NCBI GenBank assembly: GCA_019636335.1
Contig: JAHBXR010000007.1
Location: 109,978 to 173,977, forward strand
DNA length: 64,000 bases
Direction: 5' to 3'
DNA from: Pirellulales bacterium
Lineage (GTDB): Bacteria > Planctomycetota > Planctomycetia > Pirellulales > JAEUIK01
Shown: one piece after another, positions 40,309-57,700 of the stretch
How positions within the stretch are numbered: the first letter of the stretch is position 1
Layout: the number at the start of each line of letters is the position of its first letter
The notes under the pieces: model-generated
Databases searched by the model: none
Told to the model about the DNA's origin: nothing
The model's input: only the letters and a program-made list of their open reading frames with translations
Position numbers and translations under genes: made by a program

Positions 40309-40763
40309 TTCTCGACAGCCTCTCGCAGGCCGAACGCTACTCGAAGTGGATGCCTTCGCTGAAAATGGGGTTCGGTTTCATCATCGGTCAGGCGCGGGCC
40401 TCGCTCGCCCTGGGCAAGCACGAGATCGACGGGCAGCGGGCCTACGCCATGGTCGCCAAGTACGACACCCGCGACTACGAGAGTGCCGAGCCCGAGGCCC
40501 ATCGCCGCTACCTCGACATCCAGTACCTGATTTCCGGTCGCGAGACGATCTATTGGACTCCGCTCGACGAGACCGGCAAGGTGACGCAGCCGTATGACTC
40601 GGAACGGGACATCATCTTTTTCGAACGGAACGCCCGGGCTCGCCCCTTCGAGCTGGCGGCGGGTCACTTTGCGATCTTCTTTCCCGATGATGCCCACGAG
40701 CCCAACTGCCACGCCGGCGACCCTGCGCCGGTACACAAGGTGGTGGTGAAGATACTTCTTTAG
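40305..40763 (+). CDS. YhcH/YjgK/YiaL (DUF386) family protein
   Basis: ATGA overlap with the upstream gene; EAHRRYLDIQYLISG, FAIFFPDDAHEP and HKVVVKI. Confidence 0.9.
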   Translation: MILDSLSQAERYSKWMPSLKMGFGFIIGQARASLALGKHEIDGQRAYAMVAKYDTRDYESAEPEAHRRYLDIQYLISGRETIYWTPLDETGKVTQPYDSERDIIFFERNARARPFELAAGHFAIFFPDDAHEPNCHAGDPAPVHKVVVKILL

Positions 40764-40790: not shown

Positions 40791-40806
40791 TGGCACTGGG
40801 TTTGCT
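40791..40806 (+). promoter_or_regulatory. Sigma54 (-24/-12) promoter
   Basis: TGGCAC-TGGGT-TTGCT matches the TGGCAC-N5-TTGCW consensus exactly. Confidence 0.7.
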
Positions 40807-40816
40807 TTCATTGATA

Positions 40817-41146
40817 GCCGTTGCCTGACGGCAACTGACCGGGGCCGAAACAGAGAAGAGCATGTTGCCGGGGCCGGTCACTGGAAGAGGTTAGTGCAGC
40901 ACAATCGTTTGCATCTCAGTAACGCCTTGCAGTAAAGCTACTTGCGAATAGAGAGAGGTGGCGTTCCTGAACGATGGGCCGAAGCGGAACCGAGGCCCGA
41001 GGTTGAGTTGGAAGCCCCTGCCCCCCCGGGGGCTTCCAACTCATTGTTGCAAAACGATACAGCAAAATTGCACACGTGTTGCACTTTTAGACAGTAGCCA
41101 GCCCAGCGATTTGACCCCCCAGTCGATCGCAGGGCTGGCTTTTTTT
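40817..41146 (+). ncRNA. Candidate sigma54-dependent structured non-coding RNA
   Basis: Lies between the sigma54 box and an intrinsic terminator, has a run of stem-loops and no convincing ORF. No known family recognised. Confidence 0.45.
41096..41146 (+). terminator. Intrinsic terminator
   Basis: AGCCAGCCC (41096-104) / GGGCTGGCT (41132-40) stem with an inner GCGAT/ATCGC extension, followed by a T7 tract. Confidence 0.8.
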
Positions 41147-41202
41147 GTGACTGGGAGAAATCGTGCGAGGGGCAACGAAGGCGAGGCAATGATCTTAACT
41201 TG

Positions 41203-41394
41203 CCCTCGCTGACGCTTTTTTGAAGTGGCGCTTTTCGCGGCATCGTAACCCGAAGCGTCAGCGAGGGAGTACTTTGCTCGACGTTCTTTGCAGGAACTCC
41301 CTCGCTGACGCTTCGCGCTTAGGATGGGCTGATTTGCCGAATACAGACGCCAAGGAACCTCGAAAGGCACAACTTCAAAGAGCGTCAGTGAGGG
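41203..41394. mobile_element. Non-autonomous MITE/REP-like nested inverted-repeat element, copy 2 (inverted relative to copy 1)
   Basis: Outer CCCTCGCTGACGCT / AGCGTCAGTGAGGG, then TTTTGAAGTGGCGCTTTTC / GAAAGGCACAACTTCAAA, and inner AAGCGTCAGCGAGGGAGT / ACTCCCTCGCTGACGCTT. Confidence 0.75.
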
Positions 41395-41419
41395 GAAATC
41401 TGGATCGAGTGCGAAAACT

Positions 41420-41447
41420 TTGACAGCATTGCTCGCACGGTTAGCAT
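41420..41447 (+). promoter_or_regulatory. Sigma70-like promoter of the DUF1549/DUF1553-DUF1501 pair
   Basis: TTGACA (41420-25), 16 nt, TAGCAT (41442-47), about 50 nt before ATG 41495. Confidence 0.5.
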
Positions 41448-41494
41448 AAAATCTTGTAGTACAAGCGTTTGCCGAAGATTCGGCGGAGACCGAA

Positions 41495-43219
41495 ATGCCA
41501 GTCGTTGCCAGCCGCCTCTCCCCGCTCGCCTTGTTGCTTGCCGCGCTCGTGGCATGGCCGGCGCTGGGGGCGAACGAGACGCCCGAACGTCCCCAGGCGC
41601 CCGCCACAGAGCAAGCGCAGAATTCGCTTGGCGCTGCCCGTAGTGACAGCGCGGTCATCGAGGCGATCAACGCCCGGATCAAGCAAGGCTGGGCAGACGC
41701 CGATGTTAGTCCTTCTTCGCGGGCGACCGACGGCGAGTGGTGCCGGCGCGTCTATCTCGACGTGATGGGGCGCATTCCGTCGCTCGATGAAGTGACAGCA
41801 TTTCTGAAAGACCGCGATCGCGACAAGCGCGCCAAGCTCGTCGATCGCCTGCTCACCAACGACGACACGAAGGATCGCTATCTCGAACAGTATGCCCGGA
41901 ACTGGGCCACGATCTGGAGCAATCTGTTGATCGGTCGCACGGGGGGCATGGACAATCGCAGCCTGATCGATCGCGACGGCATGCAGCAGTATCTACGCCG
42001 TTCGTTCGAGCGCAACAAGCCGTACGATCGGTTGGTGTTCGAGTTGGTGAGCGCCGACGGCGTCAACAAGCCGGGCGAGGAAGACTACAACGGCGCCGTG
42101 AATTACCTGGTCGAAAAGCTCGACGAGGATGGCGTGCAGGCCACGGCGCACGTCTCGCGTTTGTTCTTGGGCGTGCAGGTGCAGTGTACGCAATGCCACA
42201 ACCATCCGTTCAATAGCTGGAAGCAGGATCAGTTCTGGGGCATGAACGCCTTCTTCCGGCAAGCCCGGCCGCTGCGCACGCGCGAGGGGCGCAACGTGGT
42301 CTCCGTGCGGTTGGCCGACCAGGACTACACGGGCTCGAGCCGCGATCCCAAGGATGCCACCGTCTCGTACGAGCTGCGCAATGGTGTGCTGGCCGCCGTG
42401 CCGCCGCGATTCATCGATGGCACGGAGATCAATCCCAGCGGCTATGTGACCGAAGTGAATCGCCGCGAGGAGTTGGCCCGGCTGATCACCGCCTCGGACG
42501 AAATGCCGCGGGCGATCGTCAATCGCACGTGGGCGCATTTCCTGGGTTACGGCTTTACGCGACCGATCGACGACATGGGACCGCACAACCGCACCTCGCA
42601 TCCCGAGTTGCTCGACGAGCTGGCGCTCGATTTCAAGGCCAGCCAATTCGATCTCAAGCGGCTGATCCGTTGGATCGTGCTCAGCGAGCCGTACGCCCTG
42701 TCGAGCCGAGCTGGCAAGTCGAACGATAAGGACGATCCCGCGCTCGGCAATCCGCCGCTGTTCAGTCGCTTTTACCTACGTCAGATGCGGGCCGAAGAGT
42801 TGTACGAATCGCTGCTCGTGGCGACGAAGGCCGACGAGACCAGCCAGAAAGATCAGGATGCGATGAAGCGGCAATGGCTCGGCCAGTTTGCCATTGCGTT
42901 CGGCACCGACGATGGGGAAGAGGCAACTACGTTCAACGGCACCATCCCGCAGGCGCTGATGATGATGAACTCCGACCTGGTGCAACGTGCCACGGCCTGC
43001 GAACCAGGCTCCATGTTGCACGATGTGGTACAAAGTCAGTTGCCCGACAAGGAAAAGATCAACCGCCTCTACCTGGCGGCGCTCGCGCGCCCGGCGACGG
43101 GGCCCGAGATGAAGCTGGCCCACGAGTTGTGGCAGGCGCGTGGGGGAGACTCGTTGAGTGCCACACAAGACATCTGGTGGGTGCTGCTCAACACGAATGA
43201 ATTCATTCTCAATCACTAA
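41495..43219 (+). CDS. DUF1549/DUF1553 (PSD1-type) domain protein
   Basis: EWCRRVYLDVMGRIPS, FLGVQVQCTQCHNHP, RAIVNRTWAHFLGYG, SHPELLDEL, PQALMMMN and WVLLNTNEFILNH. Confidence 0.93.
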   Translation: MPVVASRLSPLALLLAALVAWPALGANETPERPQAPATEQAQNSLGAARSDSAVIEAINARIKQGWADADVSPSSRATDGEWCRRVYLDVMGRIPSLDEVTAFLKDRDRDKRAKLVDRLLTNDDTKDRYLEQYARNWATIWSNLLIGRTGGMDNRSLIDRDGMQQYLRRSFERNKPYDRLVFELVSADGVNKPGEEDYNGAVNYLVEKLDEDGVQATAHVSRLFLGVQVQCTQCHNHPFNSWKQDQFWGMNAFFRQARPLRTREGRNVVSVRLADQDYTGSSRDPKDATVSYELRNGVLAAVPPRFIDGTEINPSGYVTEVNRREELARLITASDEMPRAIVNRTWAHFLGYGFTRPIDDMGPHNRTSHPELLDELALDFKASQFDLKRLIRWIVLSEPYALSSRAGKSNDKDDPALGNPPLFSRFYLRQMRAEELYESLLVATKADETSQKDQDAMKRQWLGQFAIAFGTDDGEEATTFNGTIPQALMMMNSDLVQRATACEPGSMLHDVVQSQLPDKEKINRLYLAALARPATGPEMKLAHELWQARGGDSLSATQDIWWVLLNTNEFILNH

Positions 43220-43267: not shown

Positions 43268-44548
43268 ATGCGACGCTTGTTGACGACGCCCACGGGAATG
43301 AACCGGCGCCACTTCCTGCAGCACCTGGCGGCCTCTTCGGCCCTAGCGGGGACGGCGCTGCAATTCACGTCGACGATGCAGGCGCATGCCGACGATCTCA
43401 AGAAACGCCACAAAGCGGCCATCCTGCTGTGGATGGGAGGCGGGCCGAGCACGATCGATATCTGGGACCTGAAGCCAGGGGCCAGCACCGGCGGCCAGTT
43501 CAAGCCGATCTCGACCGCCGGCGATCTGCAAATCTGTGAGCACATGCCGCTCGTCGCGCAGCAGATGCAGCACCTGGCCGTGGTGCGCTCGATGAGCACC
43601 CGCGAGGCCGATCATAATCGTGGCCGCTATTACATGCACACGGGCTACGTGCCCAATCCCGACATCATGCACCCCAGTTACGGCGCCGTCATCGCGCACG
43701 AGTTGGAGAGTCAGTCCCCCCAGCTCGAGATTCCCCCCTTCGTGTCGATCGGCGGGCCGAGTGAAGGGCCGGGCTTCCTGGGCATGACCTATTCCCCCTT
43801 CGTCGTCGACTTCAACGGGCAGGTGCGCAACCTGCAGATGGGGGTCGAGTGGGATCGCATGCAGCAGCGCATGCAGATGCTAGGCGCCGTCGAGACGAAC
43901 TTCGTTCGCGAACGGCGCGGCGCGGCGGCGGAAGACCACTCGAAGGTCCTCGCCAAGACCTATCAGCTCATGACGAGCAAGCAGATGGAGTCCTTCAAGA
44001 TCGACCAGGAGCCCCAGGCCGTCCGCGAGCGTTACGGCACCACGGGCTTCGGCCGCGGCTGCCTGATGGCCCGCCGGCTGGTCGAGACGGGGGTCTCGTT
44101 CGTCGAGGTCGATCTCGGCGGCTGGGACAATCACATGGGGGTCTTCACGGCGCTCGAGCGCCGCTTGCCCGAGTTGGATCAGGGCATGAGCGCGCTGGTC
44201 GAGGATCTCTCCCAGCGTGGCCTGCTCGAAGACACGGCCATCATCTGGATGGGCGAGTTCGGCCGCACGCCGCGCATCAACGCCACGGCCGGCCGCGACC
44301 ATTGGGCCCGTAGCTGGAGCGTCGTGGTCGGCGGCGCCGGCATCAAGGGAGGCATCGCCGTCGGCGCGACGAACGAGGACGGCACCGAGGTCGACACGAG
44401 CGTCGCGCCAGCCTACACGTCGCAAGATCTGATGGCCACGGTGCTCAGTTCGCTGGGCATCCCGCTCGACAAGAATTTCACGAGCCTGAACGGGCGGCCG
44501 ATGAAGATCGCCAACAGCGGTCGGGTGATTAAAGAGCTAGTGGCGTAA
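43268..44548 (+). CDS. DUF1501 domain protein (Tat signal)
   Basis: NRRHFL twin-arginine motif, LLWMGGGPSTIDIWDLKP, FGRGCLMARRLVE, GGWDNH and GEFGRTPRIN...GRDHW. Confidence 0.93.
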   Translation: MRRLLTTPTGMNRRHFLQHLAASSALAGTALQFTSTMQAHADDLKKRHKAAILLWMGGGPSTIDIWDLKPGASTGGQFKPISTAGDLQICEHMPLVAQQMQHLAVVRSMSTREADHNRGRYYMHTGYVPNPDIMHPSYGAVIAHELESQSPQLEIPPFVSIGGPSEGPGFLGMTYSPFVVDFNGQVRNLQMGVEWDRMQQRMQMLGAVETNFVRERRGAAAEDHSKVLAKTYQLMTSKQMESFKIDQEPQAVRERYGTTGFGRGCLMARRLVETGVSFVEVDLGGWDNHMGVFTALERRLPELDQGMSALVEDLSQRGLLEDTAIIWMGEFGRTPRINATAGRDHWARSWSVVVGGAGIKGGIAVGATNEDGTEVDTSVAPAYTSQDLMATVLSSLGIPLDKNFTSLNGRPMKIANSGRVIKELVA

Positions 44549-54700: not shown

Positions 54701-57700
54701 GGGGCCAAGCACGGGATCGTCCAGCAGACGCATGAGGGCCACGTACAGCGCGATAACGACGACCGGTATCAGCGTGAGGAACACGAGCACCAGATCGATC
54801 GCGCGTCGGCTATCTGGGCTGCTTTCATCGGTGCCGGCGATACCGGCGCGCATGCCGAGTGCGGTCAGCCCCGAACGGTTCCAGACCACCACCGACATGG
54901 CGAAAAATCCCCCCGTCAGTGTCCAACGCAAGGCCGACGCTGTCGCGACTGCGGATTCAAAGGGGGCGGCGACTAGCAAGCAGGCGCTCGTGCCGAGCAC
55001 GAGCAGGCCCAGGAAGCGCGCCAGCGCCGGTTTCTCCCACAGGCCGACCACGAGCAGGATCGACACAAGGCCCCACAGCAACCAGGTTCCTCCTCGTCGC
55101 GCCGGCTCGTGCGGAATCAAGGCATCGGCAAAATTAGCGGCACTCGGTACGACACGATCGACGCCGTCGTCGATCATCGATTGCGGTGCTTGTGCGGCAA
55201 TCGCCCGTACGGTTTGCTCGTTGGCCAACTCCTGCAGTGTGCCGGGCAGCGCGGCATAGGCGGTTAATCCCAACAATCCCAGAACCAGCATGCCGGTGGC
55301 AAGGTAATCAATCGAGACAACCGTCGGCCGTTGCAATAAAGATCGCAGGGGCGAGAACCTGTTGTCCTCGCGCCGACAGAGGAACCAGCGCAGTGCCAGC
55401 CAGGCGAGACACAGGCAGGCGGCTACCGATCCCTGCAATTGCAGCATGCGAGGATCGTACAACGGTTCAGCCGAGGTGGCGTACCAGGCCTGGCGCGAAG
55501 CGAAATCGAGTGCGCCCAGCCCGGCAACACCGAACAGCGCGGACTGCGACAGATCGAACAGAACGGACGAGCGACGTGAGAGCGCGCTTAAGAACCACAC
55601 GAGCGCCAGTACCGCGACATGCGCAGCCAGCGGTATCAGACGCAGCGCATCGTTCGTCAACGGAATGGTCAACAGGTAAAGGCCAACCTGCAGTGCCGCA
55701 AACGCCGACGTGATGAATCCCGTCGTAATCAGCGCATCGTGTACGACGAGCCCGTTCGCTTCGGGGTTGCCGGCATCGTTCCGGGGGCGGCGTCTGAGCG
55801 TCAGCGAGGCCAGAAGGCAAACGAGGAGTGCGTGTGCCGTGGCCGCGGTCATCCAGGGGGCCGCCAACACATGTCCGTCCGCCGGACGGTAGACGATGCC
55901 TTGGACGAGCGCGAGCGCGAGCAACGCAGAACCGGCATAGGCCGTCCACCTGCGAAGCCGAACGGCTCTCTCCTGCCCTGCCATCGACTCGGGCCAGGGA
56001 AGCATCGCCGCGATCAGCGTGGCTACTGCGTACAACGCATAGATCAGCGTCGCGTGATGGGGGTCGCCCGATACGCGAAAACCGAACAGCGTGACCAACG
56101 TGAGACTCAGGACCGCCGCTGCGCCGGCGATGATCGCGTAGTAGCGGGCATCGAACGGACGCCGCAAGCGATACCATACGGCGGCGCCCGCACCATAGAG
56201 CAGCGCCAGCACGGTCAGGGCATTGCCGCTCGAGGCGGAGAGCAGAGCCTCGGTTGTCTGCTGGGTGGTAACCTCGCGCCACGGCAGTACCCCACGCACG
56301 ACCTGCACGAGCAGGAGATAACCAAGTGCGAAGGCAACCCCCGCCAAAAGATGTGCCGGCGCCAACTCGACGGCCAGCGCCACCGTGGTCAGCACGACGA
56401 AGCACAGGCCCGCCACTGTCACCAGCAAACCAGGCTCCGGCCATGCCAGGACAACACCGCCGAGCATGATGAGACTGCCCAGCACGGTGAGCGCCGTCCC
56501 CGCCGTACGCAGCCCCGACAGCTCGATGTTTTGCACGCGGCGCCAGAGCAGCAGCCCCACCGCCATCGTCGGAGCGCCGGCGAGTGTGACCAGCGGCGCT
56601 AGTCGCTGCATCGTCTCGGGAATGTTACCCGAAAGGGCCAGCAGCAGTCCGCAGGGAGGCAACGCCGCGAAGGCGGTGACGCCCAACATGCGCAACAGCG
56701 CATTGATTGCTGGTTCCTTGAGTTCCGCATTCTTGCGTAGCCGCGCGATGAGGGTGGCCACAGCGCCGCCGTGACACAAGAGGGGCAGCGCAGCCAGGAT
56801 GTAGAGCATCGAGTCCGGGGCGTTCGGGTCGATCCAGCGCCGCACCAGGAGCGACGAGATCGACGCCCCCATGACCCCTGCCGTCATGGCGATCGGAGCC
56901 GGCGTGACGATCGCCCGTCCGGCCAGAAACACGAGCGTCGAGAATAGCCCGAGCGAGAGGACTTCTCCCACGAGCACCTTGGGGTCGGAGGCTAGCGCCC
57001 CCTGCGTGAAGGCGGCGATCGAGAGAAAATTCAGCGGCACCAGCAAGGTGGCAATCGCCAGCACGCCGCGGCTCGTGGTGGGCAACTTCCATTTCCGCGC
57101 CGTGTAAAAGCCCAACGCGAAGAGCGAGGCGGAGACGCCGTTGAACAGACCGAACTTCAACAGCGGCCGGGCGGCGATTTGCGACCAGAAGCTGATCACG
57201 AGGGCCACGGAGCCGCCGACGATCAACAGGCCACCGACCAACTCGCCCCAGCGGACGTTCTTTTCCTCCATGAAGGCCGAGAGCAAGTCGGCCAGCCCAC
57301 GCTGGCGTGGCGGAACGGCCACGACCGAAGCACTGGCAGGAGACGGCCCCTGGGGTGATACAGCCGCGGCGGCAGGTGTGCCTGGGATCTCTTCAGCCGC
57401 GACGTAGATCGGGATCGTGGGGGTGACGGGCAGAGTCGGGGACGCATCGTGCCGTGGGGGGGACGCCTCGGTCGGGACAGAAGGTTCGATCGATTCCGCG
57501 ACCGCGAAGGTCGGCTCGGCAATCATCTGGGGAACGACGAGCGAATCATCTCCCGGGGCGGTCGAGTTCTCGGTGACCGTTGCCGGCAGCGGCGTGCTAG
57601 GAAGGGTGGCCGGCGCAGATTGAGCCAGACGCGTCTCTTCGGCGGCGACAGAAGCGAGCAATCGCTGGAACGAATCGGCGGGAAGCGATCCCTCGCGTTG

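Follow-up and report, generated by a model that had tools for sequence, protein, structure and literature searches.

The 64,000-nt window analysed here, taken from contig JAHBXR010000007.1 of the Pirellulales bacterium assembly GCA_019636335.1, contains at positions 40791-41146 a gene for a non-coding RNA of 230-330 nt, here called RNA-B; the gene is real, it is expressed and its conservation is wide. As judged from sequence comparison, the conserved core of RNA-B goes beyond structure alone and is primary sequence complementary to a second, partner RNA, here called RNA-A. We put at about one half (0.5) the probability that RNA-B is activator-controlled and pairs with RNA-A as a decoy or sponge, with a set of tandem dyads behind its terminator as the probable sites of the activator. 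Action as a decoy or sponge is the most likely outcome of the pairing, antitermination is an attractive alternative, and the remaining explanations are less likely. The main proposal of an earlier sequence-only reading of the window, an activator-controlled structured non-coding RNA, is supported, and none of the four outcomes that it named as speaking against it (no transcript, no conservation, a conserved open reading frame (ORF), a match in Rfam) occurred.

A BLAST search with the unit against 40 relatives matched a 50-nt core alone, in three other families. The loci aligned in this way all share a TGGCAC-N5-TTGC box, a long hairpin and an AT-rich conserved block, and their common core consists of GGGGCCGRAACAGAGAAGAG followed by CGGGGCCGG-N5-8-GAAGAGG. 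Further loci were collected, the 5' part of 19 of them was aligned, and a sequence model, R1, was built from this 5' part. In the 19-sequence alignment both cores are invariant or nearly so, and the spacers differ in length and sequence. Of 301 Pirellulales genomes, at least 130 contain full-length matches to model R1, comprising the promoter and both sites described below, and the model also matches three genomes in one other family of the class Planctomycetia. The copy examined from that family, outside the order, is a shorter RNA-B-like gene with a single, exact site (L217, G394:C4:48474-48564). Its box reads TGGTAC-N5-TTGC, and it possesses a GGAACAG loop and a strong terminator, but no dyads.

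No ORF is conserved in 32 homologues. The longest sense ORFs, of 11-91 amino acids, differ in position and between them use three different frames across the conserved core; a small-protein reading was rejected because ORF length, place and frame are all unconserved. A search of the whole window against Rfam 15 gave no match at the gathering thresholds, and at E-value thresholds only chance matches were obtained, the best of which reached 22.6 bits where the gathering score is 70. Known RNA families, including Qrr, GlmY/GlmZ, CrcZ, CsrB/RsmZ and 6S RNA, were rejected, as the Rfam matches of both RNA-B and RNA-A were chance or terminator-only ones. No tRNA or tmRNA was found.

The gene opens with a sigma-54 (-24/-12) promoter, TGGCACTGGGTTTGCT (TGGCAC-N5-TTGCT, 40791-40806, + strand), identified by its sequence and its conservation in homologues, and transcription is predicted to start near position 40817. 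The GG and TTGC elements are unchanged in the 19 aligned homologues, which belong to many families, and no full-length match to model R1 lacks the box. The source genome carries 14 strict TGGCAC-N5-TTGCW boxes, against approximately 5 expected, together with one rpoN gene (an ORF with an RpoN box on contig C22) and at least 14 ORFs for enhancer-binding proteins with the GAFTGA and Walker A motifs and a C-terminal helix-turn-helix. We infer that RNA-B depends on RpoN and on an enhancer-binding activator. An activator gene beside RNA-B was looked for and not found: neither the flanking regions of 32 loci nor the contig of the window contain a GAFTGA ORF.

The partner is defined by the 20-mer GGGGCCGGAACAGAGAAGAG, which with at most two mismatches is present in 238 of 301 Pirellulales genomes. 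Among the matches listed, most genomes have one exact copy, often accompanied by another that varies more. These variable copies are the RNA-B genes, and therefore the transcribed strand of RNA-B carries sites able to pair with the RNA-A segment; in the exact copies it is the opposite strand that is functional. The 20-mer was also found in records of Gemmataceae, Isosphaeraceae (including Paludisphaera soli), Planctomycetaceae and Thermoguttaceae, and the 20-nt segment of RNA-A is identical across Planctomycetia. RNA-A comprises a sigma-70-like promoter (TGGACA-N17-TAnnAT), approximately 110-130 variable nucleotides, the segment CGGCCUCUUCUCUGUUCCGGCCCC and then a terminator, CCCCGCCG...CGGCGGGG-U7, the stem of which shows compensatory changes. 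A purine-rich arm in its 5' part pairs with its own CU-rich 3' segment. The copy of the source genome, of about 150 nt, is unannotated and lies on the minus strand of contig C18 at approximately 55990-56140 (L037:1455-1620). No match to RNA-A was found in Rfam. One genome (G118) contains 12 copies of the 20-mer on 11 contigs, mostly reading GCAGCCGGAACAGAGAAGAG, which may represent a repeat family that acquired the RNA-A docking site.

Two full sites complementary to RNA-A are present in RNA-B. Site 1, GGGGCCGAAACAGAGAAGAG (40841-40860, + strand), matches, apart from a single A-C mismatch, the complement of CUCUUCUCUGUUCCGGCCCC, the 3' segment that is invariant in RNA-A. Site 2, CGGGGCCGG-TCACT-GGAAGAGG (40869-40890, + strand), retains both flanks of this complement around a variable middle, and its GGGGCCGG part is nearly invariant in the 19 homologues. 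The calculated duplexes with RNA-A have energies of -47.9 kcal/mol for site 1 and -39.3 kcal/mol for site 2, compared with -32.0 +/- 3.0 kcal/mol for shuffled RNA-B. In cofolding calculations the heterodimer is favoured by 12-13.5 kcal/mol, with nucleotides 93-112 of RNA-A paired to 40841-40860 and the base of the RNA-A terminator melted; the sites of RNA-B reach 4-5 nt (CCCCG) into the 8-bp terminator arm of RNA-A. Among 30 distinct site 1 sequences, positions 2-4, 7 and 14-15, which belong to the two cores, are never substituted, and the sole change at position 5 is C>U, by which a G-U pair is retained. RNA-B thus shows a property looked for in an RNA sponge, extended complementarity to the conserved segment of the partner that is kept in relatives.

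Another such property, accessibility of the sites in the folded decoy, is found by prediction in 28 homologues. The mean predicted unpaired fraction is 0.70 for the GAGAAGAG core and 0.60 for GAAGAGG, against 0.37 for the whole molecule (p = 7e-8 and 2e-4, respectively), and in the window the GAGAAGAG core of site 1 is predicted to be unpaired with a probability of 0.97. In the predicted folds, the two GGGGCCGG parts are often paired to one another. Additional copies of GGAACAG or GAAGAGG in homologues occupy inner hairpin loops and terminator loops. In the window, the loop of a hairpin with a GGGCC/GGCCC stem (40976-40998, + strand, minimum free energy (MFE) fold) contains GCGGAACCGAGGCC and is designated partial site 3; its counterpart in homologues is the loop motif GGAACAGCGAGGC, and its duplex with RNA-A, at -34.2 kcal/mol, falls inside the range of shuffles. 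A further possible partial site, AGAGAGAGG (40950-40958, + strand), is placed by the MFE fold in a bulge of the AACGCC/GGCGTT stem (40921-40965). Motifs of the GAAGAGGC type recur in homologues at this relative position, and the duplex of 40950-40958 with RNA-A is weak (-23.5 kcal/mol).

Exposed, repeated loop motifs are the usual design of multi-loop small RNAs (sRNAs), and RNA-B might be a base-pairing sRNA of the ordinary type, with purine-rich loops directed at CU-rich mRNA sequences, RNA-A being one target among several or an incidental match. This seems improbable, given that the match to RNA-A spans 20 nt, is order-wide and is duplicated. In addition, no equal site was seen in the genome beyond RNA-A and one start codon that matches the target side of RNA-A, although mRNA targets of RNA-B were not searched systematically. 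On the side of RNA-A, one strong mRNA site was found in the source genome, at the start codon of a TadE/G-like gene (contig C28:36323-36370, L220), with a 17 + 12-nt match to the complement of the RNA-A segment that overlaps the start codon, and a duplex energy of -50 kcal/mol against a background minimum of -35.6 kcal/mol. This gene sits in a Tad pilus cluster that also encodes RcpC/CpaB, TadG-like, CpaE-like, CpaF-like and TadB-like proteins.

The same loops contain GGA motifs (CGGAACAG, GGAAGAGG), and it had been suggested from the sequence that RNA-B could sequester CsrA-family proteins in the manner of CsrB/RsmZ. The source genome does encode six CsrA paralogues (contigs C25, C43, C13, C14, C18 and C56), a tblastn search with the E. 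coli protein detected no Hfq in it, and GGA is present in sites 1-3 of most homologues. However, site 1 of the window lacks GGA, each RNA has only 3-4 GGA-bearing sites where CsrB/RsmZ-type RNAs have many, the GGGGCCGG part is predicted to be paired, and the conservation extends over approximately 20 nt and mirrors RNA-A, which is more than GGA recognition requires. The suggestion is therefore a weak one, and a role as a protein sponge is considered rather remote.

The MFE fold of 40818-41146 has an energy of -147.3 kcal/mol, compared with -110.8 +/- 5.7 kcal/mol for dinucleotide shuffles (z = -6.4). It begins with the hairpin GTTGCC-TGAC-GGCAAC (40820-40835, + strand), 3 nt past the predicted start; many homologues have a hairpin of different sequence in this position. 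It also contains a 15-bp hairpin (41004-41018 paired with 41029-41043, + strand). In an alignment of the 3' module, each of the 28 sequences has this hairpin, and its 16 pairs are 95.3% paired. Compensatory changes affect 13 of the 16 pairs, a value reached by 0 of 500 shuffles. Because a U-rich tract usually follows this hairpin in homologues, it is regarded as the family terminator (terminator 1); the tract is weak in the window (AUUGUUGCAAAACG). A second terminator, GCCAGCCC...GGGCTGGC followed by T7 (41097-41146, + strand), is predicted in the fold, and its inner part was detected by a terminator scan. Second terminators past the dyads also occur at loci L004, L078, L040, L041 and L042. 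Because the tract at terminator 1 is weak, terminator 2 is present and the metatranscriptome contigs described below extend to 41094, terminator 2 is likely to be the effective 3' end of a long form of approximately 330 nt in the window.

The sequence features listed in the sequence-only reading are thus all found where it placed them. The TGGCAC-N5-TTGCT box is present and kept in 19 homologues, the listed stems all appear in the MFE fold, the perfect 15-bp stem is a covarying terminator hairpin, and the GC stem with T7 was located where terminator 2 ends the unit. The statement that no credible ORF lies inside agrees with the comparison of 32 homologues, and the family that was not recognised then was not recognised by Rfam either. 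The comparison with relatives, proposed there as a check, found the box and the main hairpin conserved and the main hairpin covarying.

Directly behind the terminator 1 hairpin, the window contains three 17-bp dyads of the form TGT-N11-ACA (41045-61, 41058-74 and 41077-93, not assigned to a strand; consensus TGTATCAAAATGATACA), with position weight matrix scores of 25.2, 17.1 and 15.3 bits. Two or three such units follow the hairpin directly at nearly all loci. At 32 loci the dyads occur solely at +254 to +358 from the box and, one weak match aside, none was found within 600 bp upstream; an upstream enhancer was therefore rejected. The dyads were also considered as RNA hairpins and rejected in this role: their inner positions pair in 43-45% of units, no better than in shuffles, and RNAalifold predicted no structure there. 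Since the inner positions pair no more than in shuffles, the dyads are symmetric DNA sites, probably bound by a dimeric DNA-binding protein. The dyads keep a fixed distance to the terminator, whereas the next gene is anywhere from about 60 to 400 bp away from them. A search for further dyad pairs that could define a regulon found no other tandem-dyad site in the source genome. A second sigma-54 promoter served by the dyads was rejected, as the stretch from them to the next gene contains no such box. That the dyads are the activator sites, and hence a candidate downstream enhancer of the sigma-54 promoter, is given a little less than an even chance.

The gene behind RNA-B (41495-43219, + strand) encodes a protein with DUF1549 (PSCyt2) and DUF1553 (PSD1) domains, assigned by Pfam, and is followed by a DUF1501 gene (43268-44548). 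The downstream operon has its own sigma-70-like promoter, TTGACA-16-TAGCAT (41420-41447, 10 of 12 positions matching), as the sequence-only reading had proposed. The description of RNA-B as an orphan has to be given up: orthologues of the DUF1549/DUF1553 protein (48-58% identity) are encoded behind it on the same strand at 31 of 32 loci. RNA-B appears to be a discrete transcript with its own terminators, but genomically it is tied to the DUF1549/DUF1553-DUF1501 genes. The RNA-B gene and the DUF1549/DUF1553 gene may possibly be co-regulated through the dyads. RNA-A was considered as a regulator of the DUF1549 mRNA and rejected, as the duplex energies are at background level and no match is present in the 5' region.

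This synteny raises the question of whether the unit, transcribed from the sigma-54 promoter, acts in cis on the DUF1549/DUF1553-DUF1501 operon as its 5' leader or attenuator, with the dyads as the operator. Such a role would agree with the constant position of the orthologue directly downstream on the same strand, with the leaky appearance of terminator 1 in the window and with the dyads of family f18, which lie 30-100 bp upstream of the next promoter. Against it, the unit ends in one or two terminators, the downstream gene is equipped with a separate promoter, which is sigma-70-like in the window and ECF-like in f18 (ECF denoting extracytoplasmic function sigma factors), and in the window a repeat element is inserted between RNA-B and the gene. 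Furthermore, the RNA contigs end by 41094, with none on 41146-41600, and it is the dyad-terminator spacing that is fixed, whereas the dyad-gene spacing ranges over 60-400 bp. A cis-acting leader is accordingly held to be very unlikely.

Expression of RNA-B as a discrete RNA is supported by metatranscriptomes. At least 20 metatranscriptomes, drawn from at least 10 studies of sludge, bioreactors, soil and compost, contain about half of the words sampled from the unit. In seven of these aligned to the window, the unit is represented by single short contigs of 185-263 nt, all within 40830-41094, so that a transcript from the interval, as anticipated, was found. Six of the seven are approximately 95% identical to the window and come from a close relative; one compost contig is identical at every base except for a 1-nt deletion in a C run. 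The same RNA runs yielded no contig on the DUF386 gene upstream or on 41146-41600. The contig ends may reflect the limits of the conserved block rather than RNA ends, as a presumed DNA run yields a similar short contig, and DNA carry-over is a possible source of the contigs. The orientation of RNA-B is fixed by the promoter and the covarying terminator hairpin.

In the reading that we prefer, an enhancer-binding activator would switch on RNA-B from the sigma-54 promoter. RNA-B would offer two full purine-rich sites and one or two partial ones, with the GAGAAGAG cores exposed in loops. These sites would pair with the CU-rich segment of RNA-A just 5' of its terminator and with 4-5 nt of the terminator itself, and the induced RNA-B would inactivate RNA-A by acting as a decoy or sponge with several sites. 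The activator would bind the tandem dyads behind the RNA-B terminator, which would serve as a downstream enhancer. Both the pairing of the two RNAs in the cell and its outcome are inferred here.

The gene behind RNA-A makes another outcome attractive. At 74 of 110 loci a conserved gene of about 250 codons lies on the RNA-A strand, 1-90 nt behind RNA-A and often less than 60 nt past its terminator. In the source genome it encodes a 248-aa protein (contig C18:55182-55925, minus strand) that belongs to no recognised family, with no sequence match in Pfam, NCBIfam or PDB. Its AlphaFold model (mean predicted local distance difference test score, pLDDT, 91) is a galactose-mutarotase-like beta-sandwich, for which Foldseek gives template modelling scores of about 0.55 to mutarotases and to the P1 domain of YidC; the fold was considered as a functional lead and gave no clear one. 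RNA-A could chiefly be the attenuating leader of this gene, and RNA-B a trans-acting antiterminator; by the pairing proposed above, but with a different output, it would bind the leader during its synthesis, cover the 5' arm of the terminator and thereby allow read-through into this gene. The short distance, which leaves no room for a promoter of the homologous genes, fits such a role, as do the entry of the RNA-B sites into the 8-bp terminator arm by 4-5 nt, the melted terminator base in the cofold and the switch-like competition of the purine-rich 5' arm of RNA-A for the same CU-rich segment. Several sites per RNA-B, however, suit titration better than a one-to-one co-transcriptional event, and antitermination is regarded as unlikely despite its appeal. 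The same degree of doubt attaches to its fullest version, a class-wide RNA-RNA switch of Planctomycetia in which RNA-B would be a sigma-54-induced antiterminator of the RNA-A leader, driven by an enhancer past its own terminator. If true, this would be a T-box-like logic with a regulatory RNA as the effector, activating a gene for a protein of mutarotase-like fold.

A number of points weigh against the decoy reading. Because the conserved same-strand gene follows it so closely, RNA-A is probably, on the evidence of gene order, also an attenuating leader. A conserved RNA-A site at tadG-like genes was sought and rejected, the site described above being present in the source genome only and absent in orthologues. 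The segment of RNA-A never varies, which leaves RNA-A/RNA-B covariation no signal, and site 1 variants with true mismatches exist (G>A at positions 8 and 13). Sites 3 and 4 of the window form duplexes no better than those of shuffles, and in the 5' module no structural covariation was found, only an invariant GGCC/GGCC pairing being predicted. The transcript data consist solely of unstranded contigs. RNA-A of the source type was not assembled in the four metatranscriptomes examined, one of which contained only the conserved 3' end of the RNA-A of another organism. The near-universal synteny with the DUF1549/DUF1553 gene is not accounted for by pairing with RNA-A, and the dyads could instead serve the promoter of that gene as an operator.

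RNA sponges and decoys are known from several bacteria, including RosA of Bacillus, which acts against RoxS and FsrA, SroC against GcvB, the chbBC decoy of ChiX, and 3'ETS-leuZ against RyhB and RybB. Like these, RNA-B is a separate transcript with exposed sites complementary to the conserved pairing segment of the partner and, by prediction, with expression under the control of a signal. Unlike them, it is a free-standing sigma-54 gene with two full and several partial sites, and what it pairs with may be a leader and not a classical sRNA. It further differs in being found in Planctomycetia, in a source genome in which no Hfq was detected, and in that its role as a decoy is a prediction from sequence.

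Natural and engineered downstream enhancers of sigma-54 promoters are represented by the ftr elements of Caulobacter and by NtrC sites relocated at glnAp2. The dyads of RNA-B resemble these in being tandem, symmetric and a few hundred base pairs away on the transcribed side; in contrast to them, the candidate sites lie directly past the terminator of a small RNA and at a fixed distance from it.

Regulatory RNAs that depend on sigma-54 include Qrr1-5 (activated by LuxO), GlmY (GlrR) and CrcZ (CbrB) (PMC10162802, PMC3045617, PMC4152352). RNA-B shares with them the -24/-12 promoter, the short non-coding unit, the terminator and, as the promoter implies, presumed control by an enhancer-binding protein. 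GlmY and CrcZ are also decoys, but trap proteins, where RNA-B appears to trap RNA. RNA-B has no sequence or structure relation to these RNAs, in keeping with the absence of an Rfam match, and the activator sites of Qrr, GlmY and CrcZ lie upstream, whereas the only conserved candidate sites of RNA-B lie downstream. The kind of RNA, whether a sigma-54-dependent regulatory RNA or an RNA sponge, is thus already known, while the family, the partner and the arrangement are absent from Rfam and from the literature searched. In that literature there is no planctomycete sigma-54 sRNA and no description of any regulatory RNA of Planctomycetota; a sigma-54 survey in it is limited to protein-coding genes. 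The Rhodopirellula-1 motif (Weinberg 2010) is not comparable as far as the main text of that paper goes, its details being placed outside the main text.

RNA-A and RNA-B are two very widespread unannotated RNA families outside Rfam, and together they offer the first testable RNA-RNA regulatory pair in Planctomycetota. RNA-B is abundant enough to assemble alone in at least 20 metatranscriptomes of sludge, soil and compost. Through it, one of the orphan enhancer-binding proteins, of which a genome has approximately 14, becomes approachable, and so, possibly, do the DUF1549/DUF1553-DUF1501 gene pairs, which are themselves enigmatic. If the dyads are what we propose, a natural enhancer behind the terminator of its own small gene would be of interest to the sigma-54 field.

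The surroundings of the unit differ among loci. In the window, the upstream gene, which ends at 40763, encodes a DUF386 (YhcH) protein, and a gene for a class III aminotransferase is also located upstream. At 18 of 32 loci, the window not being one of them, an MsbA-like ABC exporter gene is found upstream, and in many families it ends 20-240 bp before the box. On the other side, the region between terminator 2 and the DUF1549 promoter of the window contains inverted copies of CCCTCGCTGACGCTT (41200-41340), which resemble an inserted repeat of the miniature inverted-repeat transposable element type. In one family (L003, L069, L080-L089), the DUF1549 gene is preceded, in place of the sigma-70-like promoter of the window, by a conserved ECF-like promoter motif, G(G/C)AATAAA-N14-16-CGAyT, approximately 40-100 nt past the dyads.

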